Positions 8,585-29,513 of a stretch of 29,579 nt of DNA are shown piece after piece (the stretch's first letter is position 1; each line of letters opens with the position of its first letter). Position numbers and translations under genes: made by a program. The notes below the pieces were generated by a model. The model made no database searches. It worked only from the letters and a program-made list of their open reading frames with translations, and was not told the DNA's origin. The stretch comes from Planctomycetota bacterium (lineage in GTDB: Bacteria; Planctomycetota; SZUA-567; H5-PLA8). The stretch spans positions 1 to 29,579 of the forward strand of contig BTVV01000076.1 in the NCBI GenBank assembly GCA_045863855.1, written 5' to 3'.

Positions 8585-8589
8585 GAGCT

Positions 8590-9549: not shown

Positions 9550-9980
9550 GTGGGGCCGTTGTAATCGATTTCCCGTTGGAGCGGTATGCGCGGCGTGCGT
9601 TCCGCCGTGCGGCGGCTTGGCAGGTGGTGGACGGAGCGGGTCGGCTTCGGACCGTGAGCAATCGAGAAACGCGTGACTGCCAACGCTCCTATACATATAG
9701 AAGGTAGCACGTTCTTTCGATCCGGAGCCAGAGGCGTTAATTAGGTTGTATTTAGGGCGGCCTACATCCTCTGTTGTCTTATGGAATCTCGGCGGCTACA
9801 GGCTATGCTCTTGAGCCGAACATCGAAGCCGGAGATGCTGACCGCAGCGCAGGACCTGCGGTAGGGGAGTTCGTGTCGTCGCAGTGAGGCGCAGGGGTGG
9901 GCGCTTGGGCGGCGGCAGGGGAGACGCAGGGCGCGTCTTTCTTCTATAACCGCAACGGTTTAGAGACCTCAGGGGTGGGC

Positions 9981-11585
9981 ATGCGGCAGGCCGAAGCGAT
10001 CGCGATTCCGTCCGGGGAATGCGTGGCGCTCCACGAAGCGTTGGGCGCGGTGGGCGTACCGTTCCAGGTGCGCTTACAGGCCGGGCGCGAGCTATCGGCA
10101 GAGCGGATGCTTCCGGAAGGCGAATTGGGCGGCGAACGGATCGCTTCGTTGCCGGCGTGCCTGCCCGAACATCTGGGCGACCGCGGCTTCTGCGCGGATC
10201 ACGGCATACGCTATCCGTACCTGACCGGCGCAATGGCCAACGGAATCGCCTCGGTGGAGATCGTCGAGGCGATGGGCCGCGCGGGGATGCTGGGCTTCTT
10301 CGGCGCGGCGGGGCTGTCGCTGGAGCGGATTGAGGCGGCGATCGACCGGCTGGCGGGCGGGCTGTTTCCGTACGGCTTCAACCTGATACACACACCCAAC
10401 GAGCCGCGGATGGAAGCGGCGGTGGTGGACCTGTATCTGCGCCGCGGCGTGCGGCTGGTGGAAGCTTCGGCGTACCTGGACCTGACGCTCCCGCTGGTGC
10501 GCTACCGCGTGAAGGGGATCCGGCGCGGAGCGGACGGTCGGCCCGAAGCGCCGAACCGGATCGTGGCGAAAGTTTCGCGCGTGGAAGTGGCGGCGAAGTT
10601 CTTCGCGCCGCCGCCGGAGCGCTTCCTGAAAGAACTGGTCGCGTCGGGCGAGATTCGCCCCGAACAGGCGGAGCTGGCCGCGCGGATTCCGATGGCTCAG
10701 GATCTGACGGCGGAAGCCGACAGCGGCGGGCATACGGACAACCGCCCGGCGATCGCGATGCTGCCGACGATGCTGGCGCTGCGCGACCGGATGCAGGCTC
10801 AGTACGGCTACGCGGAGCCCTTGCGCGTGGGCGCGGCGGGCGGGATTTCCACGCCGGCGGCCGCGGCGGCGATGTTCTCGATGGGCGTGGCGTACGTGCT
10901 GACGGGTTCGATCAATCAGGCGTGCGTGGAGTCGGGATCGAGCGACCGGGTGCGGGCGATGCTGGCCGAGGCGCAGCAGGCGGACGTGGCGATGGCGCCG
11001 GCGGCGGACATGTTCGAGATGGGCGTGAAGCTGCAGGTCCTGAAGCGCGGGACGATGTTCCCGATGCGCGCGGCGAAGCTGTACCAGCTTTACCGTTCGC
11101 ACGAGAGCCTGGAGAGCCTGCCGCCGGCCGAGCGCGAGGCGCTGGAGAAGAGTTTTTTCCGCGCGACGTGCGAGGATATCTGGGCGCAGACGAAGAGCTT
11201 TTTCGAGAAGCGCGATCCGAGCCAGGTGGAACGCGCGGCGCGCGATCCGAAGCATAAGATGGCGCTGGTTTTCCGCTGGTATCTGGGGATGTCGTCGCGC
11301 TGGGCCAACGCGGGCGAAGCGTCGCGGGCGGTCGATTACCAAGTCTGGTGCGGCCCGGCGATGGGCGCGTTCAACGAATGGACGAAGGGCTCGTTTCTGG
11401 AACGTCCCGAGCAGCGCAAAGTGGTGACGGTGGCGCTGAACATCCTGTACGGCGCGGCGGTGCTGACGCGCGCGCACGGGCTGCGCTGCCAGGGCGTGCC
11501 GATTCCGCCGGGCGCGGCGGAGTTCCAGCCGCTGCCGCTGGAAGAACTGTCCGCGCGCTTGAATCCGAAGAGGAGTGCGCCTTGA
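9981..11585 (+). CDS. pfaD: PUFA synthase FMN-dependent enoyl-ACP reductase (PfaD/Pfa1)
   Basis: GAMANGIAS, VEASAY, AEADSGGHTDNRP, GAAGGI, TGSINQ, MAPAADMFEMGVKLQVLKRGT, KHKMALVFRWY, DYQVWCGPAMGAFN. ATG at 9981 preferred; GTG at 9897 is the alternative start. Confidence 0.95.
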   Translation: MRQAEAIAIPSGECVALHEALGAVGVPFQVRLQAGRELSAERMLPEGELGGERIASLPACLPEHLGDRGFCADHGIRYPYLTGAMANGIASVEIVEAMGRAGMLGFFGAAGLSLERIEAAIDRLAGGLFPYGFNLIHTPNEPRMEAAVVDLYLRRGVRLVEASAYLDLTLPLVRYRVKGIRRGADGRPEAPNRIVAKVSRVEVAAKFFAPPPERFLKELVASGEIRPEQAELAARIPMAQDLTAEADSGGHTDNRPAIAMLPTMLALRDRMQAQYGYAEPLRVGAAGGISTPAAAAAMFSMGVAYVLTGSINQACVESGSSDRVRAMLAEAQQADVAMAPAADMFEMGVKLQVLKRGTMFPMRAAKLYQLYRSHESLESLPPAEREALEKSFFRATCEDIWAQTKSFFEKRDPSQVERAARDPKHKMALVFRWYLGMSSRWANAGEASRAVDYQVWCGPAMGAFNEWTKGSFLERPEQRKVVTVALNILYGAAVLTRAHGLRCQGVPIPPGAAEFQPLPLEELSARLNPKRSAP

Positions 11586-14500
11586 GCCGCGAAGTTCGAC
11601 CCGCCTCGGACGCGCCGCAGCACGAACCCCTGGCCATCGTGGGGATCGGGTGCCTGTTCCCCAAGGCCGAATCGAGCGGCGCGTATTGGGCCAATATCCG
11701 TGACGGCGTGGACGCGATCGTCGAGATTCCCGAGACGCACTGGAAGCCGGACGACTATTTCGATGCGGACCCGGACGCGCCCGACCGGACCTACGGGCGG
11801 CGCGGCGGCTTCGTGCCTCCGGTGGCTTTCGATCCGCTTTTTTACGGCATCTCGCCGAACAACCTCGAAGCGACGGACACCTCGCAGCTTTTGGGCCTGT
11901 GGGCGGCCGATCAGGCGCTGCGCGACGCGGGTTACGGTCCGGACGCGGCGTTCGACCGCGAGCGGGTGAGCGTGATTCTGGGCGTGACGGGGACGCTGGA
12001 GCTGGTGGTGCCGCTGGGCGCGCGGCTGGGGCATCCGCTGTGGCGCAAGGCGCTGCGGGATGCGGGCGTCGACGAAGCGACGACGCAGGACGTCGTCGAG
12101 CGGATCTCCGAGCAGTACGTGCCGTGGCAGGAAAATTCGTTCCCCGGCTTGCTGGGCAACGTGGTCGCCGGGCGGATCGCGAACCGGTTGAACCTGGGCG
12201 GAACGAACTGCGTGGTGGACGCGGCGTGCGCGAGTTCGCTGGGCGCGGTGCATCTGGCGGGGCTGGAACTGGCCTCGGGGCGGTCGGACGTCGTCGTGAC
12301 CGGCGGCGTGGATACGTTCAACGACATTTTCATGTTCATGTGCTTCAGCAAAACCCCGGCGCTTTCGCTGACGGGCGACGCGCGCCCGTTCGACAAGGCC
12401 GCGGACGGTACGATCCTGGGCGAAGGGATCGGCGTGGTGGTGCTGAAGCGGCTGTCCGATGCGCGCCGCGACGGCGACCGCGTGTACGCGGTAATCAAGA
12501 GCGTGGGTTCGTCGAGCGACGGCAAGGGCAGCGCGATTTACGCGCCGAAGGCCGCGGGCCAGCAGCGCGCGCTGCGCGAAGCGTACAAGCTGGCGGGTGT
12601 GACGCCGGACACGGTCGAGCTGATCGAGGCGCACGGGACGGGCACGCGCGTGGGCGACGCGACGGAAGTCTCGGCGCTGGCCGAAGTTTTCGGCGCGGCG
12701 AAGAGCGGCGCTCCGTGGTGCGCGCTGGGTTCGGTGAAGTCGCAGATCGGGCATACCAAGGCGGCGGCGGGGATCGCCGGCTTGATCAAGGCGGCTTTGG
12801 CGCTGCACCACAAGGTTCTGCCGCCGACGATCAAGATCGACGATCCGACGGAGAAGCTGGCTTCGGGCGAGACGCCTTTCTACGTGAACACGCAGGCGCG
12901 GCCGTGGCTGCCGAAGGCGGAGCATCCGCGGCGGGCCGGGGTGAGCGCGTTCGGGTTCGGCGGGAGCAATTTCCACTGCGTGCTGGAAGAAGCCGGCGAG
13001 ACGAAGCCGGAGATCGACTGGGACGGGAAGGACCAGGTGCTGGCGTTCTCGGCGGCGGATCCGGCGGCACTGGCCGCGAAGCTGGACGCATTTGCCGTTG
13101 CGCTGGACGCGCCGGCGCTGCGCGCGCGGGCGGCGCGATCGCGCGAGGCGTTCGATCCCAAGCAGCCTTGCCGTCTGGTGCTGCCGCTGGAGTCGGACAA
13201 GCCGGACCTGCCGCAGCGGATCGCGGCGTTGAAGAGCCTGCTGGCGCAGCGCGGCGGGGAAGCGTTCTGGTCGTTGCCGGACGGGACGGCGTACGGGAGC
13301 GGGGAGCTTGCGGGCAAGCTGGCGCTCTTGTTCCCCGGCCAAGGTGCGCAGTACGTGGGCATGTTCCGCGAGTGGGCGTGCCGTTTCCCGGCGTTCCAGC
13401 AGGTGCTGATCGAAGCGGACGGGGCGTTCGCGCCGGACGGTCAGGGCACGCCGTTGAGCGCGATGATCTATCCGCCGGCGGCCTTCACGGAAGCGGCGCG
13501 CGAGGCGCAGGCGGCGCGCTTGCAGGCGACGCAGCACGCGCAGCCGGCGCTGGGCGCGGTGAGTTTGGGCGCGTGGCGGGTGCTGGAACCGTTCGGTCTG
13601 AAGCCGGATTTCCTGGCGGGGCACAGCTACGGCGAACTGGCGGCACTGTGCGCGGCGGGGCGCTTCGACGACGCGGCGTTCCACGCGCTTTCGCAGGCGC
13701 GCGGGGATCTGATGGCGCGCGCGGGGCGCAACGGGTCGGACGGCGAGTCCGATCCGGGGACGATGCTGGCGGTGCAGGCTCCGCTGGTGCGCGTGCAGGA
13801 AGCGCTGCGCGAGGCGGCGGCGCCGGGCGTGGTGATCGCCAACCGCAACGCGCCGGCGCAGTGCGTGCTCTCGGGCCCGACGGGCGAGATCGAGCGCGCG
13901 GCGAAGGTGCTGGAGCGGCATGGGCTGAAGCATAAGCGGCTGGCGGTGGCGGCGGCGTTTCACAGTCCGCTGGTGGCCGCGGCGCGCGAACCGTTCGCGG
14001 CGGCGCTGGAGCGGCATGCGTTTCACGCGCCTTCGGAGCGGACGGTCTTCGCGAATACGACGGCGCAGCCGTATCCGGGCGAGCCGGCGGCGGCGCGCGC
14101 GCTGCTGGCGCGGCAGCTGGCCGAGCCCGTCGAGTTCGAGCAGTGCGTCGAGAACCTGTACGCGGCGGGCGCGCGGATCTTCCTGGAAGTCGGCCCCGGA
14201 GCGCGGCTGACGGGGCTGGTCCAGGCGATCCTGGGTTCGCGCCCGCATGCTTCGTGCGCGGTGGACGCGAGCAGCGGGCGGCGCGGCGGGTTGTCGGATC
14301 TGGCGCGCGCGCTGGCGCAGTTGGCGGCGCTGGGCCTGAGTCTCGATCTGACGCGGTGGGATACGCCGGGGGCGGCGCTGCAGGAGCCCGATGCGGCCGC
14401 GCGCGCCCGGTTGACGGTACCGATTTGCGGAGCGAATTACGTGAAGCCCAGGACGCACCAGCCTCCCAAACCTCAGCCCGCCGCGGCGCGCCCCGCCGCA

Positions 14501-17500
14501 CCGGCCGCGTTGACGCTGCCGCAGGCGGCGCCGGTTCAAACGCCGCCGCGCGCGCCGCACACGCCGGCGCCGGCCGCGCCGCTGCCGGCGAACGGTACGC
14601 TGGCGTCCGAAGCGCTGCGCGCGATTCAGGCGAACATGCTGACGCTGCAAAGCCTGCAGGAACAGACGGCGAACCTGCACCGGCAGTTCCTCGAAGGACA
14701 ACAGCAGGCGGTGCGCAGCTTCCAGATGCTGTTGGAGCAGCAGGTGCTCTTCGGGACGTCCGGCACGCCTGCCGCGCCAAGTCCGGTGGCGGCGGTACCT
14801 GTACCGGTCCTGCCGATTCCGGCGCCGGCTCCGACGGTTGCGATGCCCGCACCGGCGGCGATTCCGGCCGCGCCGGCCGTTGCGGCTCCGGCGGCCGCGC
14901 AGGCTTCCGCGCAGTTGGAGACGACGCTGCTGGAGACGGTGGCCGCGGCGACGGGGTATCCGCGCGAGATGCTGGCGCTGGAGATGGATCTCGAAGCCGA
15001 CTTGGGCATCGATTCGATCAAGCGCGTAGAGATTCTCTCGCAGTTGCAGGAGAAGCTGCCGGGTTTGCCGGCGCTGGGTTCGGACCGGCTGGGCGCGATC
15101 CGGACGCTGAAAGAGATCGTGGCGCTGCTGGGTTCGGGTAGCGCGGCAGCCGCGCCCGTGGCGGCGGCGGCACCGGCGACGGCTCCGGTCGCGCGCGCGG
15201 CGGGGAGCGGACCGAAGACCGGGAAGCTGGCGCAGATCCTGCTCGAAACGGTGGCCGAGAAGACGGGCTATCCACTGGAGATGCTGAACCTGGCGATGGA
15301 TCTGGAAGCCGATCTGGGGATCGATTCGATCAAGCGCGTCGAGATTCTCTCGGTGCTTCAAGAGCGCTTCCCGGAAGCTCCGGCGGTGGCTTCCGACCGG
15401 CTGGGCGCGCTGCGTACGCTGGAACAGATCGTCGCGTATCTGTCGGAAGGCCCCGCGGCGCCGGCGGCCGTGCCGCAGGACGCGCCGCGCAAGGTTGCGG
15501 CTCCGCCCGAACCGAAGCACCACGCCGCGGAAGGCGCGCCGCACCCGGGTCTGGAGCGGCTGGTGCTGCGCGTGAAGGGCTTGGAAGATCGCGGCGGCGA
15601 GGCGGCGCTGAACCTGGCCGCCGACGCGCCGATCTGGATTACCGACGACGGTTCGGCCTTCGCGGCGTGCCTGGAGCAGCGGCTGAAGGCGCTGGGGCGT
15701 TCGACGCGGCTGATCCGGGTGGGCGAGCGATTGGCGGAACGCCCGGAACGGCTGGCGGGGCTGGTGATCATCGCGCCTGAGGCCGGCGCGCACGACCGCT
15801 TCCTTAAGGATGCGTTCCTGCTGCTGCAAGGTTCGGCGGCGGGCTTGCGCAAGGCGGGAGCGGCGGGCGGCGCGGTGCTGGCGACGGTCTCGCGGCTGGA
15901 CGGGTGCTTCGGGCTGAACGGCGACGACGACATCCGGCAGCCGGAGTCGGGCGGGCTGGCGGGGTTGACCAAGACGGCGCTGCACGAATGGCCGGAAGTG
16001 CAGGTGCGGGCACTGGATCTGGCGGGGGATTTCGAGTCGCCGGAAGCGGCGGCGGCGCGGATCGCCGAGGAACTGCTGCGGGCCGGGCCGGTGGAAGTGG
16101 GTCTGAGCCGCAAGGGACGCTGGCATCTGGAGCTGGCGCCGATTCCGTTGAACGGGCGCGCGCCGCAGCCTCCGGTCGCGGCGGGTGAACTGATCGTGGT
16201 CAGCGGCGGGGCGCACGGGATCACCGCGGAAGTATCGGTGGCGCTGGCGCGCGCGTTCAAGCCGACGCTGCTGCTCTTGGGCCGCAGCCCCGGGCCGGAA
16301 GCCGAGCCGGACTGGCTGGCCACGCTGAGCGGCGAGGCGCAGATCAAACAGGCGCTGCTGACGCGGAAGAACGGGCACCCGGCGACGCCGAAGGCGATCG
16401 AGGCCGAACTGCGGCGGATCGTGACCAACCGCCGGCTGTTGAAGAATCTCGACCGGATGCGCGAGTCCGGCGCGCGGGTGATCTACCGCCCTGCCGACGT
16501 GCGCGATGCGGCGGCGGTGCGCGCGGCGATTCGCGCGGCGTGCGCGGAAGCCGGTCCGGTGCGGGGACTGATCCACGGCGCGGGGGTGCTGGCCGACCGG
16601 CTGATCGAAGAGAAGACGGCGGAGCAGTTCGATTCGGTCTACGACACGAAGGTGGTGGGCCTGCGCGGTCTGCTGGACGCGATCGACGCGGAATGCCCCG
16701 AGGCGCTGCGGCTGCTGGTGCTCTTTTCGTCTTCGACGGGGCGCTTCGGGCGGCGCGGGCAGGTGGCGTACGCGGTGAGCAACGAAGTGCTGAACAAAGT
16801 TGCGCAGCAGCAGGCGCGGCGGCGTCCGAAGGCGCGGGTGGTCTCGATCAACTGGGGCCCGTGGAACGGCGGGATGGTCAACGCGAGCCTGCAGAAGATT
16901 TTCGCGCAGGAAGGCGTGGGCCTGATCGATCTTCAGGCAGGCGCGGAGTTCCTGATTCACGAGATTTGTTCGAGCGGCGAGTGCCCGGTGGAGGTGACGG
17001 TGCTGGGCGCGCACGGCGCGGCGCCGGCATCGAGCGGCGCGCTGCAGCCGTCGCATCCGCTGGCCTACGAGCAGCAGGTGAGCCTGGCGGAATGGCCGGT
17101 GTTGCGCGATCACGCGATGGACGGGCACGCGGTGCTGCCGCTGGCGCTGATCGCGGAGGGTTTCGCGCACGCGGCGGTGCACGGGCATCCGGGCATGGCC
17201 TTCGCCGGGCTGGACGGCTTGCATGTGCTGAAGGGCGTGGTTTTGAAATCCGACGCGCCGCTGGCGCTGCGCTTCCACGCGGGCAAGGCCGCGCCGGCCG
17301 CGGACGGTTTGCAGGCGGTCGAGGTGGAGTTGTGGAGCAGCGAGCCGGGCGCGCACGCGCGGGCGCGGCTGCATGCCAGCGGAAAGGTGCTGCTCGCACC
17401 GATCGGTGCTGCGCCGGCTGCTCCGGAGGCGAAGCTTGGCGCGCTGGCGCTGCCGGCGTATGCGCACGCCGCCGAGAAAGCGTACGCCGATCTGCTCTTT

Positions 17501-17923
17501 CACGGCCCGGCGCTGCAGGGCTTGAAGCGCATCGAAGGCTGCGGCGCCGACGGGATCGTGGCGCTCGCCTCGGGCGCACCGGCGCCGTCGCAATGGCTGC
17601 TCAAGCCGCTGCGCCGCCAGTGGCTCACCGATCCGCTCGCGGTGGACTGCGCGTTCCAGATGATGATCCTGTGGAGCCTGGAGCAACTGGGCGCGGGCTC
17701 GCTGCCGTGCCGGATGGGGCGCTTCCGGCAATACGCGGCGCCCGTGGCGGGCCGGGAGATCCGCATCGCGATCCGGATCACGAAGCGCAAGGCGCAGATG
17801 GCCGCGGCCGAGATGGAGTTCAGCGACGCGAGCGGGAAGCTGCTGGCGCGGCTGGACGATTTCGAATGCGTGATCGACGCGGCCCTGGAACAGGCCTTCC
17901 GGCGCAACAGCGCCGCGGGCTGA
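11582..17923 (+). CDS. pfaA: PUFA synthase PfaA/Pfa2: KS-MAT-ACPx2-KR-DH(PKS type)
   Basis: TTG start overlapping the pfaD stop, with a GAGGAG SD. KS DAACASS/HGTGT/GHTK; AT GHSYG/AFHS; two ACPs with LGIDSIKRVEIL; KR GGAHGIT/HGAGVLAD/YAVSN; DH HAMDGHAVLP...FHGP...DCAFQ. Confidence 0.95.
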   Translation: MSREVRPASDAPQHEPLAIVGIGCLFPKAESSGAYWANIRDGVDAIVEIPETHWKPDDYFDADPDAPDRTYGRRGGFVPPVAFDPLFYGISPNNLEATDTSQLLGLWAADQALRDAGYGPDAAFDRERVSVILGVTGTLELVVPLGARLGHPLWRKALRDAGVDEATTQDVVERISEQYVPWQENSFPGLLGNVVAGRIANRLNLGGTNCVVDAACASSLGAVHLAGLELASGRSDVVVTGGVDTFNDIFMFMCFSKTPALSLTGDARPFDKAADGTILGEGIGVVVLKRLSDARRDGDRVYAVIKSVGSSSDGKGSAIYAPKAAGQQRALREAYKLAGVTPDTVELIEAHGTGTRVGDATEVSALAEVFGAAKSGAPWCALGSVKSQIGHTKAAAGIAGLIKAALALHHKVLPPTIKIDDPTEKLASGETPFYVNTQARPWLPKAEHPRRAGVSAFGFGGSNFHCVLEEAGETKPEIDWDGKDQVLAFSAADPAALAAKLDAFAVALDAPALRARAARSREAFDPKQPCRLVLPLESDKPDLPQRIAALKSLLAQRGGEAFWSLPDGTAYGSGELAGKLALLFPGQGAQYVGMFREWACRFPAFQQVLIEADGAFAPDGQGTPLSAMIYPPAAFTEAAREAQAARLQATQHAQPALGAVSLGAWRVLEPFGLKPDFLAGHSYGELAALCAAGRFDDAAFHALSQARGDLMARAGRNGSDGESDPGTMLAVQAPLVRVQEALREAAAPGVVIANRNAPAQCVLSGPTGEIERAAKVLERHGLKHKRLAVAAAFHSPLVAAAREPFAAALERHAFHAPSERTVFANTTAQPYPGEPAAARALLARQLAEPVEFEQCVENLYAAGARIFLEVGPGARLTGLVQAILGSRPHASCAVDASSGRRGGLSDLARALAQLAALGLSLDLTRWDTPGAALQEPDAAARARLTVPICGANYVKPRTHQPPKPQPAAARPAAPAALTLPQAAPVQTPPRAPHTPAPAAPLPANGTLASEALRAIQANMLTLQSLQEQTANLHRQFLEGQQQAVRSFQMLLEQQVLFGTSGTPAAPSPVAAVPVPVLPIPAPAPTVAMPAPAAIPAAPAVAAPAAAQASAQLETTLLETVAAATGYPREMLALEMDLEADLGIDSIKRVEILSQLQEKLPGLPALGSDRLGAIRTLKEIVALLGSGSAAAAPVAAAAPATAPVARAAGSGPKTGKLAQILLETVAEKTGYPLEMLNLAMDLEADLGIDSIKRVEILSVLQERFPEAPAVASDRLGALRTLEQIVAYLSEGPAAPAAVPQDAPRKVAAPPEPKHHAAEGAPHPGLERLVLRVKGLEDRGGEAALNLAADAPIWITDDGSAFAACLEQRLKALGRSTRLIRVGERLAERPERLAGLVIIAPEAGAHDRFLKDAFLLLQGSAAGLRKAGAAGGAVLATVSRLDGCFGLNGDDDIRQPESGGLAGLTKTALHEWPEVQVRALDLAGDFESPEAAAARIAEELLRAGPVEVGLSRKGRWHLELAPIPLNGRAPQPPVAAGELIVVSGGAHGITAEVSVALARAFKPTLLLLGRSPGPEAEPDWLATLSGEAQIKQALLTRKNGHPATPKAIEAELRRIVTNRRLLKNLDRMRESGARVIYRPADVRDAAAVRAAIRAACAEAGPVRGLIHGAGVLADRLIEEKTAEQFDSVYDTKVVGLRGLLDAIDAECPEALRLLVLFSSSTGRFGRRGQVAYAVSNEVLNKVAQQQARRRPKARVVSINWGPWNGGMVNASLQKIFAQEGVGLIDLQAGAEFLIHEICSSGECPVEVTVLGAHGAAPASSGALQPSHPLAYEQQVSLAEWPVLRDHAMDGHAVLPLALIAEGFAHAAVHGHPGMAFAGLDGLHVLKGVVLKSDAPLALRFHAGKAAPAADGLQAVEVELWSSEPGAHARARLHASGKVLLAPIGAAPAAPEAKLGALALPAYAHAAEKAYADLLFHGPALQGLKRIEGCGADGIVALASGAPAPSQWLLKPLRRQWLTDPLAVDCAFQMMILWSLEQLGAGSLPCRMGRFRQYAAPVAGREIRIAIRITKRKAQMAAAEMEFSDASGKLLARLDDFECVIDAALEQAFRRNSAAG
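14915..15443 (+). repeat. Two tandem ACP-coding repeats inside pfaA, separated by a Pro/Ala linker
   Basis: About 14915-15130 and 15227-15443 both encode TGYP..MDLEADLGIDSIKRVEILS..SDRLGA.RTL..IVA, with several synonymous and non-synonymous differences. Confidence 0.9.
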
Positions 17924-17997
17924 CGCGCGGGAAAACCCACAGCCAGGCGGATCGATGAGCGGCGCGCACTCAGCGGCGCGCGCGACGGGGGAGCGAC

Positions 17998-20900: not shown

Positions 20901-23900
20901 CGCGGCGGGGAAGCTCGCGTTCGTCTACCCCGGCTCGGGCAACGCGTTCGCGGGGATGGGCCGCGGGCTTTGCGCGCGCTGGCCGGAGATTCCGCGGCGG
21001 CAAGACGCGGAAAACGAGCGGCTCTTCGATCAACTGCGGCCGGACTTGTTCTGGCCGGGCGAGCCCGGCGCGCGAACGGAAGCGCCGCCGCTTGAGCAGT
21101 TGATGGGACAGGTGGCGTTCGGGACGCTGATGACGGATCTGCTGCGCGGATTCGGACTCGAACCGGCGCTGGCGCTGGGCTACAGCTTGGGCGAATCGGC
21201 GAGCCTCTTCGGGCTGCGCGTCTGGCGCGCGCGCGACGAGATGCTGGAGCGGCTGCACGCTTCGACGCTCTTTACCGCCGACCTGGCCGGCGCGTGCCGT
21301 TCGGTGCGGCGTGCGTGGAAGCTGGCCGACGACGATCCGCTGGAGTGGACGGTGGGGATGGTGGACCGCCCGGCGCGCGAGGTCGAGGCGGCGCTGCGCG
21401 GGAAGCCGCGCGCGGCGCTTTTGATTGTCAATTCGCCGACGGCGTGCGTGGTCGGCGGCGACCGGCCGGCGGTCGAGGAACTGGTCCACGCGCTGCGTTG
21501 CGCGTTCCTGAAGATTCACGGGGTGACGGTCGCGCACCACCGCGTGGTGGAACCGGTGGCCGAGCCGTACCGGAAGCTGCATCTGTTCGAGACGCACGAT
21601 CCGGGCGCGGTGCGCTTTTACAGCGGCGCGCGGGGGACGGCGTACGAGATCGGCCCCGAACGCTGCGCCGAAGCGATCCAGGCGCAGGCGCTGAACACGA
21701 TCGATTTTCCGCGGCTGGTGTCGAATGCGTACGCCGACGGCGCTCGGATCTTCGTCGAGATCGGGCCGGGTTCTTCGTGCACGCAGATGATCCGCAAGAT
21801 TCTCGCCGAGCGCCCGCACCGCGCGTGTTCGGCTTCGCTGATGGGGCAGGACGAAGCGGCGACGGTGCTGCGCGTGCTGGCGCAGTGCGTGGCCGAACGC
21901 GTGCCCGTGCGGCTGGACGGTTTGTATCCGTCCGCGGAGGCGGACAAGAAGATCGAGGCGCGAGCGCACGAGAAGCTCCTGGCGCTGCCCGTGCGACCGG
22001 GCGCGTTTCGCGTGCCGCCGCCGCCCGCCGAGCAGCCGGAACGCGCGCCGGCCTTCGCGGTTTCGGCCGCGCCGCGCGCCGAGGCGCCGGAAACGGCGCT
22101 GGCCGAAAGCTTCCGCAACGCCGAGCACGCGCGGATGCGCGCGCATGCGCAGTATTTGAGCTTCGCCGAAGACCTCAACCGCGCGATGGCTTCGACGGTG
22201 AGCGCGCAGTTGGCGCTGCTGGAACGCTTGCAGTCCAATCCGGCGGCGCAGGCGGAGAGCGTGAGCGGGCCGCCGGCCGCGGCGCCCGCGCGCGTCTTCA
22301 TGGATCGCGCGCAGTGCATGGAGTTCGCGATCGGTTCCATCGGCAAGGTTTTGGGATCCGCGTTCGCGGCGGTGGACGCGCATCCGACGCGCGTGCGGCT
22401 GCCCGACGAACCGCTGATGCTCGTCGACCGCATCCTGGAGGTGGAAGGCGAGCCGCTGAGCCTGAGTTCGGGGCGAGTCGTGACCGAGCATGACGTGCGG
22501 CCGGGCGCGTGGTACCTCGACGGCGGGCGCATCCCCACCTGCATCGCGGTGGAAGCCGGGCAGGCCGACCTGTTTCTCTCCGGATACCTCGGCATCGACT
22601 TCAAGACCGCGGGCCTGGCGATGTACCGGCTGCTCGACGCGGTGGTGACGTTCCACCAAAGCCTGCCCGAGCCCGGCCAGACGATCCGCTACGACATCCG
22701 CATCGAACGCTTCTTCCGGCAGGGGCAGACGTATCTGTTCCGGTTCAGCTTCGAATCGACGGTGAACGGGCGTCCGTTGCTGACGATGCAGAACGGATGC
22801 GCGGGCTTCTTCACGCCGGAGGAACTCGCGGCGGGGCAGGGGATCGTGCACACCGAACTGGATAAGCGTGCAATTCCGGGGAAGCGTCCGGCCGACTGGC
22901 AGCCGCCGGTGGCGCTGGGGGCGATCGAATGCTATTCGGATGCGCAGGTCGCGGCGCTGAGGCGCGGCGACTTGGCGGCGTGCTTCGGGCCGGCCTTCGC
23001 GAATTTGGCGCTGAACGAACCGCCGCGCCTGCCGGGCGGGCGGATGGAACTGGTCGACCGCGTGATCCGGCTCGATCCGAAGGGCGGGCGTTACGGGCTG
23101 GGGCAGATCGACGCGGAGATGGATATCCGCCCCGACGACTGGTTTCTGACCTGCCATTTCAGCGACGACCGCGTGATGCCGGGCACGCTGATGTACGAAT
23201 GCTGCATGCATACGCTGCGCATTCTGCTGCTGCGCATGGGCTGGGTGGCCGAGCATGCGCGAACGATCTGCGAACCGGTGCCCGGGGTGGCCAGCCAGCT
23301 CAAGTGCCGCGGACAGGTGATCGAGAGCACGCGGAAAGTGATGTACCGCATTTCGCTGAAGGAATTCGGCTTCGGCCCCGAGCCGTACGCGATCGCCGAC
23401 GCGCTGATGTTCGCCGACGGCAAGCCGATCGTCGAGATTACCGATATGTCGGTGCGGCTGGCTGGGCTTTCGCGCGCGGAACTCGACCGGGTCTGGAGCG
23501 GCGCGCGGCCCGCGCGTGCGTCGGGCGAGCGCAAGCCGGCGGTGTACGACTTCGACCGGATTCACGCGTTCGCGGTGGGCAAGCCTTCGGTGGCGTTCGG
23601 GAAGCCGTACGAAATTTTCGATGCGTCCGGGGAGACGGGCTTGGGGCGGGTGATCGCGCGGCTGCCCGGGCCGCCGTACCAGTTCCTGGACCGCATCACC
23701 GCGGTGGATTCGGCGCCGTGGGAGATGAAGGCGGGCATCACGGTCGAAGCGCAGTACGACGTGCCGCCGGATGCGTGGTACTTCGCGGCGCATCGCGGGC
23801 AGGGGATGCCGTTCGCGGTGCTGCTCGAGATTGCGCTTCAGCCGTGCGGGTGGCTCGCGGCGTACATGGGCAGCGCGCTGACGAGCGCGACGGATCTGTC

Positions 23901-24612
23901 CTTCCGGAATCTAGGCGGCGCGGGGCGGCAGTTGCGCGCCGTCGGCCCGGACGCCGGCACGCTGACGATCACGGTCAAGAGCACCAAGATTTCGGCCAGC
24001 GGCGGGATGATCATCCAGCACTACGATCTCGACGTGCGCGACGCGGCGGGGCCGGTGTACAGCGGGAACACGTACTTCGGATTCTTCGGCAAGGAGGCGC
24101 TGGCGCAGCAGGTGGGCATCCGCGATGCCAAGCCGTACCGCGAAGCGCAAACGGGCGAAGCCTTCGCGTTTCCGGAGCAGGCGCCTTATCCGGACGCCCA
24201 GTTGCGCATGCTGGACCGCGTCGATGCGTTCGTGCAGGCCGGCGGCCCGGCGGGGCTGGGCTTTCTGCGCGGCAGCCTGGAGGTCGATCCGCGGACGTGG
24301 TTCTTCAAGGCGCACTTTTTCCAGGATCCGGTCTGCCCGGGGTCGCTGGGTCTGGAGTCGTTCCTGCAATTGGCGGGGATTGCCGCGCGGGCGCGTTGGG
24401 GCGAACGGACGTTGCTGCACGCGATGACCCTGGGGCAGGATCACCAGTGGATCTACCGCGGGCAGATTGTGCCCAAGGATCGGCGCGTGACCGTGGAGGC
24501 TTGCATCACCCGTGTGGACGATGCGGCGCGGAAGATATGGGCCGAAGGCTTCCTTTCGGTGGACGGCCGGCTGATCTACCAGATGAAGGATTTCGGCCTC
24601 CAGGCGCTTTAG
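17998..24612 (+). CDS. pfaBC: PUFA synthase PfaBC/Pfa3-type fusion: KS-CLF-AT-FabA-like DH (four hot-dog units, two with catalytic His)
   Basis: GTG start with a GGGGAG SD. KS DAACASA/HATGT/GHLL; CLF with SCEEASG (Glu at the Cys position); AT YPGSG/GYSLG/VAHH; DH WFLTCHFSDDRVMPGTLMYE and WFFKAHFFQDPVCPGSLGLE. Confidence 0.93.
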   Translation: MEGASAQQFDRRIAVVGLGAVFPGAADLAGFWRNVRDGISAARDVPDGRWPQPKEAYYDPQPGRADRVYSVRGCFLDEIRFEPTPDLHVDAAWLARMDPLFSLVLRAGVDAFRSGVTAGLDRRRTGVILGNIALPTEHASALAREVLGRTFEEQAAGAARAGEAPVAAQNRLVAGLPAGVLAHALRLGGGAFTLDAACASALYALKLAADELLSGRADAMLAGGLSRPDGLYTQMGFAQLRALSPSGRCAPFDAKADGLVVGEGAGIFLLKRLADALRDGDRIHATIHGIGLSNDIHGSLLAPHSEGQLRAMRAAYAQAGWTPQDVDHIECHATGTPLGDAVEFNSLKELWGSSERRCAIGGVKSNVGHLLTGAGAAGLAKTLLALREETLPPTAHFERAAPNVSLHDSPFDVLSAARAWPRRSSGQARRAAVSAFGFGGINAHLLVEEWLGAPEAAAPAPLEVRSAAAREPAEALAVVGMEAHFGPWETLQAFQERALGGRSDAPRPPAGWWGVEQSAWFRARGARAPRGYFIDELRVPAGRFRIPPHELAEMLPQQVLMLQVAAGALQDAGLTGELGVRTGIYIGLELDLNTTNFQLRWTLPKDRAIEGAAGAAWQEALRDAYGPALNANRTMGALGGIVASRIAREFRCGGPSHTLSCEEASGLSALHVAAQALRAGEIDRALVGAVDLAGDPRALHEAGRELPGEGAAALVLKRLSDARRDGDRVYAVLRGVGLSGAGHARGLEAAEERACAQAGIDGQRAGYAELAAPPGEEPQEGAWGHAASTFGHAGAATGLAALVRACVCLHQEMLPASESAAPRYWLRNRADGPRRASVSVRAEGGTCAHAVLEEYAARTAESPPPRRTGMGPPREVLFALEADTPAELAALLDRLAAFEAGGDPEARAAAWLRAHPSSPARKLGLALIASDFEDLKRQIAAARQALEGSTPRRGGALEQVYFAAEPLGAAGKLAFVYPGSGNAFAGMGRGLCARWPEIPRRQDAENERLFDQLRPDLFWPGEPGARTEAPPLEQLMGQVAFGTLMTDLLRGFGLEPALALGYSLGESASLFGLRVWRARDEMLERLHASTLFTADLAGACRSVRRAWKLADDDPLEWTVGMVDRPAREVEAALRGKPRAALLIVNSPTACVVGGDRPAVEELVHALRCAFLKIHGVTVAHHRVVEPVAEPYRKLHLFETHDPGAVRFYSGARGTAYEIGPERCAEAIQAQALNTIDFPRLVSNAYADGARIFVEIGPGSSCTQMIRKILAERPHRACSASLMGQDEAATVLRVLAQCVAERVPVRLDGLYPSAEADKKIEARAHEKLLALPVRPGAFRVPPPPAEQPERAPAFAVSAAPRAEAPETALAESFRNAEHARMRAHAQYLSFAEDLNRAMASTVSAQLALLERLQSNPAAQAESVSGPPAAAPARVFMDRAQCMEFAIGSIGKVLGSAFAAVDAHPTRVRLPDEPLMLVDRILEVEGEPLSLSSGRVVTEHDVRPGAWYLDGGRIPTCIAVEAGQADLFLSGYLGIDFKTAGLAMYRLLDAVVTFHQSLPEPGQTIRYDIRIERFFRQGQTYLFRFSFESTVNGRPLLTMQNGCAGFFTPEELAAGQGIVHTELDKRAIPGKRPADWQPPVALGAIECYSDAQVAALRRGDLAACFGPAFANLALNEPPRLPGGRMELVDRVIRLDPKGGRYGLGQIDAEMDIRPDDWFLTCHFSDDRVMPGTLMYECCMHTLRILLLRMGWVAEHARTICEPVPGVASQLKCRGQVIESTRKVMYRISLKEFGFGPEPYAIADALMFADGKPIVEITDMSVRLAGLSRAELDRVWSGARPARASGERKPAVYDFDRIHAFAVGKPSVAFGKPYEIFDASGETGLGRVIARLPGPPYQFLDRITAVDSAPWEMKAGITVEAQYDVPPDAWYFAAHRGQGMPFAVLLEIALQPCGWLAAYMGSALTSATDLSFRNLGGAGRQLRAVGPDAGTLTITVKSTKISASGGMIIQHYDLDVRDAAGPVYSGNTYFGFFGKEALAQQVGIRDAKPYREAQTGEAFAFPEQAPYPDAQLRMLDRVDAFVQAGGPAGLGFLRGSLEVDPRTWFFKAHFFQDPVCPGSLGLESFLQLAGIAARARWGERTLLHAMTLGQDHQWIYRGQIVPKDRRVTVEACITRVDDAARKIWAEGFLSVDGRLIYQMKDFGLQAL

Positions 24613-24651
24613 CAGGCTATTTCGTCAGGCGGCCAAGACCCCAAAATCACA

Positions 24652-24680
24652 TTAGCTCCCAGCGGGTTCGACCGTATAAT
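24652..24680 (+). promoter_or_regulatory. Candidate internal sigma70 promoter upstream of oleA
   Basis: Perfect TATAAT at 24675-24680 in very GC-rich DNA. TTAGCT (24652-24657) sits at 17-nt spacing. The -10 ends 31 nt before the oleA ATG. Confidence 0.55.
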
Positions 24681-24711
24681 CCCCTTCTTCACCCGCGAGC
24701 GTCCGGCAAGC

Positions 24712-25764
24712 ATGAAGTACACCAAGGTCCATATCGAAGCCCTCGCCTACGAGTTGCCGCCGGTGGTGGTGACGAGCGAGGAACTGGAAGAACGGCTCGC
24801 GCCGCTTTTCAAGAAGCTGCACATCCCTTCGGGCCAGTTGCTCCAATGGACGGGCATCACGGAGCGGCGCTGGTGGGACGCGGGTCACGAGCTGTCGCAA
24901 GGCGCGATCGCGGCGGCGCGCAAGGCGCTGAGCGGTTCGGGCGTTCCGGCGCGCGACCTGGAGGCGCTGATTTACGCCGGGGTCTGCCGCGAGAATTTCG
25001 AGCCGGCGACGGCCTGCCGGGTGGCCGCGTCGCTGGGGGTCAATCCGCGCGCTTCGGTTTACGACGTGAGCAACGCGTGCCTGGGCGTGCTGAACGGCAT
25101 CGTCGACATCGCCAACCGCATCGAGCTGGGCCAGCTTCGCGCCGGCATGGTCGTCTCGTGCGAGAGCGCGCGGGAGATCGTCGAGCGGACCATCGACCGG
25201 ATGCTCGAACGCCCCGAGATGGATCTGTTCAAGTCGTCGGTCGCGACGCTGACCGGCGGTTCGGGCGCGGTGGCGGTGCTCCTGACGGACGGATCGTATT
25301 CGACCTCCAAGCGGCGCCGGCTGTTGGGCGGCGAGAACATGGCCGCGCCGGAACATTACGGGTTGTGCCGCTGGGGTCTGCAGAAGATGACCTCGCTGGG
25401 GACGCACGTCGCCACACAGGTGATGACCACCGACTCGCCGCTGGTGCTGAAGTACGGCGTGGACCTTGGACTGCGCACGTGGCTGAGCTTTCTGGGGCAT
25501 GTGGGCTGGGCGACGGAGCACGTAGATAAGGTGATCTGCCACCAGGTCGGCTCGGGACACCAGAACTCGATCCTCAAGACGCTGGGCATTGCCCCGGAGA
25601 AGGATTTCGTTACGTATCCGTACCTCGGCAATATCGGCACCGTATCGCTGCCGCTTACCGCGGCGCTGGCCGAAGAGCGCGCGTTCCTGAAGGCCGGCGA
25701 CCGCGTGGGCTTCCTGGGCATCGGCAGCGGCTTGAATTGCATGATGCTGGGCATCGAGTGGTGA
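24712..25764 (+). CDS. oleA: OleA, acyl-CoA:acyl-CoA non-decarboxylative Claisen condensing thiolase-fold enzyme
   Basis: ENFEPATA (catalytic Glu), DVSNACLG (Cys), TLTGGSGA, CHQVG (His), GNIG (Asn) and the C-terminal GIGSGLNC..LGIEW; first gene of oleABCD. Confidence 0.93.
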   Translation: MKYTKVHIEALAYELPPVVVTSEELEERLAPLFKKLHIPSGQLLQWTGITERRWWDAGHELSQGAIAAARKALSGSGVPARDLEALIYAGVCRENFEPATACRVAASLGVNPRASVYDVSNACLGVLNGIVDIANRIELGQLRAGMVVSCESAREIVERTIDRMLERPEMDLFKSSVATLTGGSGAVAVLLTDGSYSTSKRRRLLGGENMAAPEHYGLCRWGLQKMTSLGTHVATQVMTTDSPLVLKYGVDLGLRTWLSFLGHVGWATEHVDKVICHQVGSGHQNSILKTLGIAPEKDFVTYPYLGNIGTVSLPLTAALAEERAFLKAGDRVGFLGIGSGLNCMMLGIEW

Positions 25765-25777
25765 CTTTCCTTCGCCC

Positions 25778-26710
25778 ATGAACGAGACGGCGATGCAAAC
25801 GGCCCTGCGCTCCAAACTCCAAGCGCTCGATCCGGAACTCTACCCGTTCGAGAGCCGCTACCTCGACCGCGGCGGCTTGCGTTACCACTACGTGGACGAA
25901 GGCCAAGGCGAGCCGCTCGTGATGGTGCACGGCAATCCCACGTGGTCGCTGTACTTCCGCGAGCTGGTGAAGACGTTCCGGACGCGCTATCGCTGCGTGG
26001 TTCCCGACCATATCGGCTGCGGGTTTTCGGATAAGCCCGGTGACGAACGCTATGCGTACACGCTGGAACGGCGGGTGGACGACCTGGAGGCTCTGCTGGA
26101 GCACCTGGGACTGCGCGAGAACCTGACGCTGGTCCTGCACGACTGGGGCGGCATGATCGGCTGGGCGTATGCGGCGCGGCATCCCGAACGCGTGAAGCGG
26201 TTCGTGATCCTGAATACGTCGGCCTTTCATCTTCCCGCGTCCAAACCATTCCCGTGGCAGCTTTGGCTGACACGCACGCCGCTGGGCGCGCTGCTGGTAC
26301 GCGGCTTGAATGCGTTCGCCGGATCGGCCGCGCGCGTCTGCGCGAAGCGCCGGCCGCTCTCGCCGGCGTTGCGCGCGGCGTACAAAGCGCCGTACGATTC
26401 GTGGGCGCACCGCATCGCGGTGCTTCGGTTCGTGCAGGATATCCCGCTGCGCCCCGCCGATCCTGGCTACGCGATCGTCAGCGGCGTGGAAGAGAAGCTG
26501 CCCGATTTCCGCCGGCACCCGATGCTGATTTGCTGGGGCGAGCGCGACTTCGTATTCGACAAGCATTTCCTGGCCTGCTGGGAGCGGGCGTTTCCGGAGG
26601 CCGAACTGCATCGCTTCCCCGACTGCGGGCATTACATCCTCGAAGACGCGGGGCCGGAGGTCGCGAAGCTGATGCAGGCGTTCCTCGACGCGCATCCGCT
26701 TGGGGCCTGA
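25778..26710 (+). CDS. oleB: OleB, beta-lactone decarboxylase (haloalkane dehalogenase-like alpha/beta hydrolase)
   Basis: HGNPTW, PDHIGCGFSDKP, HDWGG (nucleophile Asp), RFVQDIP, WGERDFVF, CGHY; position between oleA and oleC. Confidence 0.92.
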   Translation: MNETAMQTALRSKLQALDPELYPFESRYLDRGGLRYHYVDEGQGEPLVMVHGNPTWSLYFRELVKTFRTRYRCVVPDHIGCGFSDKPGDERYAYTLERRVDDLEALLEHLGLRENLTLVLHDWGGMIGWAYAARHPERVKRFVILNTSAFHLPASKPFPWQLWLTRTPLGALLVRGLNAFAGSAARVCAKRRPLSPALRAAYKAPYDSWAHRIAVLRFVQDIPLRPADPGYAIVSGVEEKLPDFRRHPMLICWGERDFVFDKHFLACWERAFPEAELHRFPDCGHYILEDAGPEVAKLMQAFLDAHPLGA

Positions 26711-26720
26711 CGGACCGCGC

Positions 26721-28379
26721 ATGAACCCGGTGAACGTCGCCGCGCACCTGCCGCTGCTGGCGCAAGGCCGGCCCCATGCGCCGGCGGTAATCTTGCAGCA
26801 GGGCATGCAGCGTTACCGTACACATTCGTTCGAAGAACTGAATCGATTGAGCGACGCGTACGCGGCGGGGCTGGAAGCCTACGGCGTCCGGCGCGGCATG
26901 CGCGCGGCGCTGATGGTCAAGCCCAGCCTCGAATTCTTCGGCCTGGTCTTCGCGCTTTTCAAAAGCGGCACCGTTCCGGTCCTGATCGATCCGGCCATCG
27001 GCGCGCGCAGCCTGAAGCACTGCCTCGAAGTGTCCGCGCCCGAAGCGTTCATCGGCATCTCCAAGGCGCATGCGGCGCGCGTGCTTTTCGGCTGGGGCAA
27101 GCGCTCGATCAAAAAGCTCGTCACCGCCGGCCCGCGGCTTTTTTGGGGCGGTCGCAGCCTGGCCGGCATACGCCGGGAAGGCGAGAGACGCCGCGCGTTC
27201 GCGATGCCCGCCGTCGATCCGGACGAGACGGCGGCGATTCTGTTCACCAGCGGGAGCACCGGAAGTCCCAAGGGCGCGGTCTATTCGCACGCGAATTTTT
27301 CCGCCCAAGTGGAAGCGCTGCGCGAGACGTATGCGATCGAGCCCGGCGAAGTGGACTTGGCGACGTTTCCGCTCTTTGCGCTCTTCGGCCCGGCGCTGGG
27401 CATGACGGCGCTGGTGCCCGACATGGACCCCACGCGCCCGGCGCGGGCCGATCCGGCGCGGCTCGTCGCGGCGATCCAGAAGTGGAACGCCACGAATTTG
27501 TTCGGTTCGCCCGCGCTGATCGACCGGCTGGCGCGGTACGGCGAAGCGCATGGCGTCAAGCTGCCGTCGCTCAAGCGCGCGCTCTCGGCCGGCGCACCGG
27601 TCCCGCCGGCCACCGTGCGGCGCTTTCAGAGCATGCTCGCGGAAGGCGTGCAGCTTTTCACGCCCTACGGCGCGACCGAGGCGCTGCCCGTCTGCAGCAT
27701 CGGCAGCGCCGAGATCCTCGGCGAGACCGCCGAGGCGACGCGGCAGGGGCACGGCATCTGCGTCGGACGGCCGGTGCGCGGGATGCAGGTGCGGATCGTG
27801 AAGATCAGCGACGAACCGATTGCCGCGTGGTCGGACGAGCTGCTTGCGCCGCCCGGCGCCGTCGGCGAGATCGCGGTCCAAGGCGCGGCGGTGACGCACG
27901 CCTACTTCAACCGCGCTGACGCGACGGCCTTGGCGAAGATTCCCGACCCGTACGGCGGCAGCTTCTGGCATCGCATGGGCGACCTGGGCCGCCTCGACGC
28001 TCAAGGCCGCGTGTGGATGTGCGGGCGCAAATCGCATCGCGTGGCGACGCCGGAGGGCGAACGGTACTCGGTGCCGTGCGAAGGGATCTTCAACGCGCAT
28101 CCGAGCGTCTTCCGCACGGCGCTGGTGGGTGTCGGCCCGCGTGGCGCGCAGCGCCCGGTGCTGTGCGTAGAACTCGAGCGCGAAGTTCCGGCGGATGCGG
28201 AGCGGATTCGCCGCGAACTGCTGGACCTGGGCGCGCAACACGAGCAGACGCGCGCGATTCGCGAGATCCTTTTTCATCCGGCGTTCCCCGTGGATATCCG
28301 GCATAACGCGAAGATCTTCCGCGAAAAGTTGGCCGAGTGGGCCGCCGAACGGCTGGGCGCCGGGAGCGCGCGAAGATGA
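26721..28379 (+). CDS. oleC: OleC, beta-lactone synthetase (AMP-forming ligase)
   Basis: FTSGSTGSPKG, TFPLFALF, TPYGATEALP, WHRMGDLG, CGRKSHRV, FPVDIRHNAKIFRE. Confidence 0.93.
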   Translation: MNPVNVAAHLPLLAQGRPHAPAVILQQGMQRYRTHSFEELNRLSDAYAAGLEAYGVRRGMRAALMVKPSLEFFGLVFALFKSGTVPVLIDPAIGARSLKHCLEVSAPEAFIGISKAHAARVLFGWGKRSIKKLVTAGPRLFWGGRSLAGIRREGERRRAFAMPAVDPDETAAILFTSGSTGSPKGAVYSHANFSAQVEALRETYAIEPGEVDLATFPLFALFGPALGMTALVPDMDPTRPARADPARLVAAIQKWNATNLFGSPALIDRLARYGEAHGVKLPSLKRALSAGAPVPPATVRRFQSMLAEGVQLFTPYGATEALPVCSIGSAEILGETAEATRQGHGICVGRPVRGMQVRIVKISDEPIAAWSDELLAPPGAVGEIAVQGAAVTHAYFNRADATALAKIPDPYGGSFWHRMGDLGRLDAQGRVWMCGRKSHRVATPEGERYSVPCEGIFNAHPSVFRTALVGVGPRGAQRPVLCVELEREVPADAERIRRELLDLGAQHEQTRAIREILFHPAFPVDIRHNAKIFREKLAEWAAERLGAGSARR

Positions 28380-29377
28380 AGGCGCTCGTCACCGGAGGCG
28401 GCGGATTTCTGGGCGGCGCGATCGTGCGCATGCTTGTATCGCGCGGGGACACGGTGCGAACCTTCTCGCGCGGCGCGTATCCGTGGCTGGCGGAGTTGGG
28501 CGTCGAGCAAGTGCGCGGCGAACTGGACGACGCCGCGGCGCTTCAACGCGCGGTGCACGGCTGCGAGATCGTCTTTCACGCCGCGGCCAAGCCCGGCATC
28601 TGGGGACCGTACGCCGAATACCACCGCGTGAACGTGACCGGCACCGAGCGCGTACTGGAGGTGTGCCGCTCCGAAGGCGTGCGCAAGCTGATCTTTACCG
28701 GCAGCCCCAGCGTCACCTTCGACGGCCGCGACCAGTGCGGTGTGGACGAGTCGGCGCCTTATCCGTGCCGCTGGCTGGCGCATTATCCGCACACCAAAGC
28801 GCTGGCCGAACAACGCGTGCTTGCGGCCAACGACCCGGACCTGGCCACGGTGAGCCTGCGGCCGCACCTGATTTGGGGGCCGCGCGACAACCATCTCGTC
28901 CCGCGCATCGTCGCGCGCGCGAAAGCCGGCAGCCTGCGCATCGTCGAGACGCCCGGCACGAAGGTCGATTCGGTCTACATCGACAACGCCGCCGAAGCGC
29001 ATCTGCTGGCCGCCGAGCGGTTGGAACCCGGCGCGGCGTGCGCGGGCCAGGCCTACTTCATCAGCAACGGCGAAGCGCTGCCGATGAGCGAACTGATCAA
29101 CGCGATCCTGGCCGCCGCGGGCCTGCCGCCCGTGACGCGGCGCGTCTCACCCGGAATGGCCTACGCCGCCGGCGCGATCTGCGAAGCGTGGTACGGCTTG
29201 TGGGGCAAAAAAGATGAGCCGCCGATGACGCGCTTCCTTGCCCGGCAGCTTTCGACCTCGCACTGGTTCCGTATCGAGCGGGCCCAACGCGATCTGGGCT
29301 ACGCACCGAAAGTAAGCATTGCGGAAGGCTTACAGCGCCTGAGCGCTTGGCTGGCCGAAGCCGGCGGCGATCAATAG
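28376..29377 (+). CDS. oleD: OleD, 2-alkyl-3-oxoalkanoate reductase (extended SDR, 3-beta-HSD-like)
   Basis: ATGA overlap with the oleC stop; VTGGGGFLG, FHAAAK, SPSV, YPHTK (YxxxK), LRPHLIWGP. Confidence 0.92.
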   Translation: MKALVTGGGGFLGGAIVRMLVSRGDTVRTFSRGAYPWLAELGVEQVRGELDDAAALQRAVHGCEIVFHAAAKPGIWGPYAEYHRVNVTGTERVLEVCRSEGVRKLIFTGSPSVTFDGRDQCGVDESAPYPCRWLAHYPHTKALAEQRVLAANDPDLATVSLRPHLIWGPRDNHLVPRIVARAKAGSLRIVETPGTKVDSVYIDNAAEAHLLAAERLEPGAACAGQAYFISNGEALPMSELINAILAAAGLPPVTRRVSPGMAYAAGAICEAWYGLWGKKDEPPMTRFLARQLSTSHWFRIERAQRDLGYAPKVSIAEGLQRLSAWLAEAGGDQ

Positions 29378-29436: not shown

Positions 29437-29513
29437 TGGTAGCGGGGGAGGGATTTGAACCCCCGACCCCAGGATTATGATTCCCGTGCTCTAACCAACT
29501 GAGCTACCCCGCC
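29437..29513 (-). tRNA. tRNA-Met(CAT), elongator type, with encoded CCA
   Basis: The reverse complement GGCGGGGTAGCTCAGTTGGTTAGAGCACGGGAATCATAATCCTGGGGTCGGGGGTTCAAATCCCTCCCCCGCTACCA folds into a 77-nt cloverleaf. It has G1:U72 and A73, and lacks the initiator's C1:A72 mismatch and three consecutive G-C anticodon-stem pairs. Confidence 0.95.

Follow-up and report, generated by a model that had tools for sequence, protein, structure and literature searches.

A seven-gene pfa–ole cluster of Geobacter/Gemmata (Type I) layout in a Planctomycetota contig, probably serving the synthesis of a long polyunsaturated olefin

Type I clusters of polyunsaturated fatty acid (PUFA) synthase genes, in the classification of Shulse and Allen (2011), are defined by a pfaBC fusion and are described from Geobacter, Desulfuromonas, Pelobacter and Gemmata obscuriglobus; their linkage to ole genes is frequent, a role as supplier of olefin precursors was proposed for them in 2011, and they are stated to occur 'most often' with a nearby P0-motif phosphopantetheinyl transferase (PPTase) (PMC3098273). 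In Geobacter bemidjiensis Bem, pfaD, A, B, C, oleA, B, C, D and pfaE are reported in tandem and the organism is reported to make the C31:9 polyene (PMC4882568). Here, we describe a pfa–ole cluster in a Planctomycetota contig (BTVV01000076.1, assembly GCA_045863855.1) of 29,579 nucleotides, the whole of which is referred to below as the window. The cluster has the Geobacter/Gemmata (Type I) layout and, by analogy with its relatives, its likely product is a head-to-head olefin, long and polyunsaturated, with hentriacontanonaene (C31:9) as the most probable candidate. Its layout is not new. As the same order has been published for Geobacter, the locus is an ordinary new copy, with one oddity, namely that no PfaE was found in the assembly. 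A sequence-only reading of this DNA had noted that pfa–ole linkage is known elsewhere, which is correct; the novelty that it saw was overstated, as the order, with pfaE, is published for G. bemidjiensis together with C31:9.

The genes of the cluster, their domains, their catalytic residues and their linkage are clear. ORF (open reading frame) and profile searches of the window recovered seven genes on the + strand at 9981-29377, in the order pfaD-pfaA-pfaBC-oleA-oleB-oleC-oleD and present as a single copy in the assembly. The gene pfaD (9981-11585) encodes an enoyl reductase of 534 aa (TIGR02814, 651.5 bits, cut-off 449), and its ATG at 9981 lines up with that of the homologues in two genomes of the same genus, G001 and G002. 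It is followed by pfaA (11582-17923; 2113 aa; TIGR02813, 1508 bits, cut-off 1010), whose TTG start overlaps the pfaD stop, and by the pfaBC fusion (17998-24612; 2204 aa), recognized with Pfam and NCBIfam models and through alignment of its acyltransferase (AT) to the Shewanella PfaB structure 9ry8. The ole block begins with oleA (24712-25764), for a head-to-head Claisen thiolase (PRK09258, 485 bits, cut-off 285), and continues with oleB (25778-26710), for a beta-lactone decarboxylase of haloalkane-dehalogenase fold, identified with PF00561 and haloalkane dehalogenase models and by its place between oleA and oleC. The beta-lactone synthetase (AMP-binding) gene oleC (26721-28379; PRK09274, 754 bits, cut-off 478) is joined by an ATGA overlap to oleD (28376-29377), for a 2-alkyl-3-oxoalkanoate reductase whose best matches by far are NF042422 and NF042423. 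From pfaD to oleD the gaps are -4, 74, 99, 13, 10 and -4 bp, all seven reading frames are intact and catalytic motifs are present in all seven products, so that the seven co-oriented genes with overlaps or gaps below 100 bp and intact motifs of the sequence-only reading are borne out. The cluster is closed by a tRNA-Met gene (29437-29513, - strand), whose 3' end faces oleD, with no pfaE between; no PPTase gene was found within the cluster or the window.

The window is an entire contig (C76) of the source assembly, which comprises 6.93 Mb in 287 contigs and is 93.86% complete with 1.5% contamination. A read-mapping break between pfaBC and oleA had been named beforehand as the sign that would expose a chimera; contigs of other runs pass across this junction. 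Among four of 24 listed sequencing runs compared with the window, none of them marked as a possible source of its DNA, single contigs of two studies bridge it (X3 22514-25567, X4 23256-25520), while the remaining five junctions are spanned by one contig or more each. The full seven-gene order is also found in G001 and G002, and in a further genome, G012, pfaA through oleD lie on one contig and pfaD on another. A chimeric assembly is ruled out by the bridging contigs from other runs and by the same order in G001 and G002. In the G001 assembly, a frameshift close to residue 207 breaks oleA (L095, C3:1378375-1379425) in two; it may be a sequencing error.

PfaA has the domain order KS-MAT-ACP-ACP-KR-PS-DH, with the residues C216, H351 and H391 in the KS, S682 and H794 in the MAT, S1145 and S1249 in the two acyl carrier protein (ACP) domains, Y1730 and N1734 in the KR and H1844 and D2022 in the PS-DH. 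A 6-base in-frame insertion at window position 14735, in the linker ahead of the ACPs, was seen in three of the four compared runs. PfaBC is arranged as KS-CLF-AT followed by four FabA-like repeats, and carries C198, H332 and H369 in its KS, E663 in place of the Cys in its chain-length factor (CLF) and Y1062-S1063 (GYSLG) and H1180 in its PfaB-type AT. Two of the repeats are DH domains with His/Glu pairs (H1720/E1734 and H2106/E2120) and two are weaker. The AT aligns to 9ry8 with E 1e-35, the GYS motif and the catalytic His being conserved. No AGPAT domain (PF01553) was found in PfaBC, and the three PF01553 matches lie on other contigs. Apart from the OleA residues Glu, Cys, His and Asn and those of the PfaBC AT, residue roles in PfaA and the other cluster proteins are assigned from the motifs of these enzyme families.

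All the marks of an OleABCD pathway, that is, the OleA active site, oleB, OleC and OleD, are present. OleA matches 3row and related structures over its full length (E 2e-56); these carry the database label 3-oxoacyl-ACP synthase III, and we take them to be Xanthomonas campestris OleA. The predicted triad of OleB is D122, D257 and H285, presumably in the roles usual for this fold. By alignment, OleA residues E97, C123, H277 and N307 correspond to E117/C143/H285/N315 as numbered in PMC8180931.

In the proposed route, PfaA would charge its two ACPs with malonyl, elongation would fall to its KS and to the KS/CLF of PfaBC, and the KR and DH domains together with PfaD would set the cis-polyene pattern of a medium-chain product, for which 16:4n-3 is predicted in the literature. 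OleA would then take two such chains, likely straight from the ACPs, and condense them, OleD would reduce the keto acid, OleC would close the beta-lactone and OleB would decarboxylate it to the olefin. Shewanella pfaA-E plus oleA are reported to yield the 31:8 ketone in Escherichia coli lacking fadD, and action of OleA on the ACPs is argued for there (PMC6463001). Membrane fatty acids would be supplied by a separate type II fatty acid synthesis system (FAS II), encoded elsewhere in the assembly by fabH-fabD-fabG-acpP-fabF on C36 and fabZ on C39. The presence of these six genes led us to reject the idea that the Pfa synthase is the core fatty acid synthase with FAS II missing. A FAS II enoyl reductase was not identified, the 23 short-chain dehydrogenases/reductases listed in the assembly being unsorted.

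The nearest product data come from G. obscuriglobus, for which Table 1 of PMC7534041 gives 6.0% n-C31:9 and shows no PUFA among the fatty acids of at least 0.5%; C31:9 is called characteristic of Gemmataceae (PMC7534041, PMC7397252). As a Type I carrier with C31:9 and no PUFA at that level, G. obscuriglobus supports the hydrocarbon reading. Several observations pull the other way. PfaBC keeps its PfaB-type AT intact, a domain that in Shewanella and Moritella decides which PUFA is finally made (PMC12895367), and P. profundum SS9 is reported to make eicosapentaenoic acid (EPA) with hydrocarbon undetectable, despite adjacent pfa and ole operons (PMC6463001). OleC scores 679 and 669 bits against NF045786 and NF045785 (cut-offs 900 and 850) and OleD 445 and 422 bits against NF042422 and NF042423 (cut-off 580), in all cases under the cut-offs of models that are Xanthomonas- and Shewanella-specific. 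No Sfp/EntD-type PPTase was found in the source assembly, a draft of the completeness given above, and PfaE is described as Sfp-type, with pfa clones that lack pfaE reported to make no EPA or docosahexaenoic acid (DHA) in E. coli (PMC2901515).

The first two of these points would fit a dual output as in Shewanella, in which the synthase supplies membrane PUFA besides or instead of the olefin. The AT is intact in its GYSLG motif and H1180, and a separate promoter for the ole block, for which a candidate is described below, would suit such an output too. Against this stand the presence of only two ACPs, the lack of an AGPAT domain, the separate FAS II and the lipid profile of G. obscuriglobus, and we consider a dual output unlikely. 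That the synthase is 'dedicated', as the sequence-only reading had it with an 'apparently', is not shown by linkage, because PfaBC retains an intact PfaB-type AT. That the Pfa-type synthase feeds OleA, so that a polyunsaturated hydrocarbon is made in place of membrane PUFA or phospholipid, was also proposed there and, by analogy with G. obscuriglobus, is the best reading.

The nature of the end product depends on the last enzyme. OleACD clusters without OleB make beta-lactones, so that oleB separates olefin from beta-lactone clusters (PMC7064751), and the C31 chain length is drawn here from relatives; on these grounds one could imagine a beta-lactone or a ketone with polyunsaturated chains, or else an olefin of a length well away from C31. 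Given that oleB is present with its predicted triad, that the cluster contains no tailoring genes and that C31:9 is reported as characteristic of Gemmataceae, we regard such a product as decidedly improbable.

The linkage of pfa and ole genes was followed in two samples. The first comprises the 80 best-ranking among 284 OleA relatives from a genome collection (related loci); a pfa part is present in the available DNA at 68 of these. At 62 of the 80, oleA is preceded on its own strand by a PfaC DH region that ends no more than 400 bp away, and 57 combine such a region with all four ole genes. Twelve related loci are without pfa, four of which have less than 5 kb of upstream DNA. The record titles of the 80 loci point to roughly nine phyla, Verrucomicrobiota, Thermodesulfobacteriota, Elusimicrobiota and Gemmatimonadota among them, although certain titles appear mislabelled. 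The closest named OleA relatives, L013 (100% identity) and L023 (89%), are both from Planctomycetota metagenome-assembled genomes, which makes an uncultured member of this phylum the likely host. For the second sample, 201 genomes with a completeness of 92% or more were drawn evenly from the phylum. Here, pfaD exceeded its cut-off in 29 genomes, and OleA was present in all 26 pfaD-bearing genomes outside the family of the source. The DH region ends at most 170 bp before oleA in 21 of the 26 (coordinates read by hand); in the other five the two are convergent and 4 kb apart (one), 20-24 kb apart (two) or on separate contigs (two). As 11 of the 26 genomes come from one family and the locus and genome sets may overlap, these counts are not independent.

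Within the family of the source, four of the other 16 genomes carry pfaD, and it is these four that have an OleA 67-100% identical to that of the window, whereas eight others have an OleA of 44-46% identity and no pfaD. A quick OleA tree, midpoint-rooted, without clade tests and with the frameshifted L023 and L043 left out, splits the pfaD-linked OleA from the 44-46% group. The pfaD-less family loci L099, L104, L105, L128, L129 and L130 (genomes G005, G003, G010, G006, G011 and G015) form a separate OleA clade; oleB adjoins OleA in four of the six, and the fetched DNA, some stretches of which end near a contig edge, gave no oleC or oleD match. Other arrangements were also seen. In L031 and L049 (Candidatus Uabimicrobium) the same cluster has pfaD relocated behind oleD; L049 is the complete genome of a named strain, which we take to be in culture. 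The pfa and ole blocks stand tail to tail in L019 and in L138 (G133), and L051 has the same OleA type with no oleB, oleC, oleD or pfa match within 10 kb.

These distributions bear on a further possibility, namely that OleA uses FAS II acyl chains, the Pfa-type synthase makes something unrelated and their linkage is incidental. The blocks are indeed separated or rearranged in G063, G080, G095, G108 and G133, and three Desulfuromonadales loci (L024, L026 and L029) have oleABCD and a PPTase with no pfa gene in 8.7-10 kb upstream; a candidate internal promoter would also be compatible with independent blocks. However, OleA occurs in all 26 pfaD-bearing genomes tested outside the family, its type tracks pfaD within the family, and in Shewanella, which also has FAS II, OleA reportedly draws on Pfa-derived chains alone (PMC6463001). 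Incidental linkage is therefore extremely unlikely in our view.

PPTases were searched for with PF01648, PF22624 and PF17837, two home-made profiles, the alignment A1, a PptT-like query and a motif scan, and these same searches did detect an Sfp enzyme in G001 and, in G073, a PptT-like one. As all the genomes are drafts, a negative result is to be read as 'not found' and not as 'absent'. The only PPTase detected in the source assembly is a 135-aa AcpS-type protein on C37 (at about 37038-37442). Likewise, G002, G004 and G012 (91-94% complete) yielded AcpS-type enzymes only, no Sfp-type PPTase being found. In G001 (88% complete) no AcpS was matched, and an Sfp-type enzyme is encoded at a distance from the cluster. 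Outside the family, the 26 pfaD-bearing genomes comprise 23 with an Sfp-type enzyme, one with a PptT/EntD-like enzyme (G073) and two with AcpS-type enzymes only (G113 and G133). Of the 59 related loci that could be scored, 29 have a PPTase gene after oleD, with the families confirmed on seven, and 30 do not. In 21 of the 26 genomes there is a single PF01648 match, often an Sfp-type gene right after the ole block; where that gene is the sole match, its enzyme would serve FAS II too.

One could thus suppose that the cluster is intact and silent, no PPTase being left that can activate the PfaA ACPs. This agrees with the AcpS-type enzyme being the only one found and with the reported failure of E. 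coli carrying pfa genes deficient in pfaE to make EPA or DHA (PMC2901515), E. coli itself having AcpS (PMC6042109). On the other hand, the seven frames and their catalytic residues are intact, an Sfp gene could simply be unassembled, and some AcpS-type enzymes are reported to accept type I carriers in vitro (PMC6042109). Moreover, the AcpS-only state is common to G002, G004, G012, G113 and G133, in three families and with OleA 65-100% identical, which argues for kept function. Silence of the cluster is accordingly very unlikely. Since no PfaE or Sfp enzyme was found, the AcpS-type PPTase is the likely activator of both the Pfa ACPs and FAS II. A narrow check of titles and abstract openings turned up no paper on AcpS activating a PUFA synthase.

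The 99-bp spacer between pfaBC and oleA contains the hexamer TATAAT at 24675-24680 (+ strand), 31 nt before the oleA ATG, a candidate -10 element. It was first spotted by eye and is the only TATAAT on either strand of the window; with 255 in the genome, the chance of one in such a spacer is about 0.002. TATAAT or TAGAAT stands at the aligned place in all five spacers compared (the window, L013, L023, L097 and L016; OleA 67-100% identical). The -35 match is weak, and a promoter scan did not call the site and gave nothing above the shuffle level. The feature is not general, a -10-like hexamer occurring in five of the 31 loci in which the spacer is long or pfa is missing upstream, versus 11 of 312 coding windows. 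The conserved hexamer hints at a promoter specific to the ole block, so that transcription of all seven genes as a single unit should not be taken for granted. RNA sequencing runs contained no more than 7-12% of the words. The description of the whole route as one unit thus holds for the contiguous genes, and is less apt in that the cluster does not contain the required PPTase and the ole block may be transcribed separately. Taken together, we see an even chance that one housekeeping PPTase of the AcpS type suffices for the tandem ACPs, with no PfaE or Sfp at all, while the ole block is expressed from a conserved promoter of its own. PUFA synthases are described as dependent on an Sfp-type PfaE. 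Should the AcpS-type enzyme indeed be the activator, the in vivo range of AcpS would be widened and heterologous expression of the cluster might be simpler.

The genes at window positions 1-9700 are unrelated to the cluster. They encode a chromate transporter (38-1171, + strand) and, on the - strand, an ORF6N protein (1674-2264), a PAS hybrid histidine kinase (2362-4350), a DksA/TraR protein (frame 4615-5715) and a DUF4340 protein with a GldG/GldF/GldA-like ABC set (5564-9696), the last divergent from pfaD. G002 (C1:1096570-1106393) has about 9.8 kb of extra DNA between the region upstream of pfaD and the ABC genes, compared with window positions 9600-9770, and is otherwise collinear with the window on both sides of this difference at 92-94% identity. 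The 3' end of a tRNA gene faces oleD in both species of the genus that were checked, tRNA-Met here and in G002 and tRNA-Pro in G001 (L095:5619-5692). An Rfam scan of the window gave the tRNA as its sole match. An integrative island at tRNA-Met is unsupported, since there is no duplicated tRNA 3' end in the window and both GC content and GC content at third codon positions are the same as in neighbouring genes.

The window adds another host to a published, widespread cluster layout. It also puts more genomes behind the view that, outside marine Gammaproteobacteria, such synthases mainly serve the synthesis of hydrocarbons. Among known systems, the myxobacterial pfa1-3 of Aetherobacter (Type L) is likewise a three-gene synthase with the enoyl reductase first and the AT within the third gene, and differs in that Pfa3 ends in an AGPAT domain, which PfaBC lacks. 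The Shewanella system of PfaA-E and OleABCD, reported to make C31:9 (PMC6463001), has the same enzyme set and chemistry, and its PfaB-type AT motif is conserved here. However, PfaB and PfaC are separate in Shewanella and S. oneidensis MR-1 has four ACPs, compared with the pfaBC fusion and two ACPs of the window, and Shewanella strains also place EPA in phospholipids. No conserved thioesterase family (pfaT) was seen among the neighbours of the 80 related loci. With Type I clusters, judged on domains and gene order, the locus shares a pfaBC in one ORF (KS-CLF-AT-DH), pfaD before pfaA, a PfaA of KS-MAT-tandem ACP-KR, a stand-alone PfaD and the ole genes; the nearby P0-motif PPTase, typical of the type and not defining it, was not found. 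In an uncultured Desulfuromonadales locus (L034), the genes stand in this order and a PPTase gene comes after oleD; its domains are 43-66% identical to those of the window. The closest described system is G. bemidjiensis Bem, which, compared by published gene order alone, has the same one-strand order from pfaD to oleD. As tRNA-Met rather than the eighth gene, pfaE, follows oleD in the window, the planctomycete cluster is a seven-gene form of the G. bemidjiensis layout.

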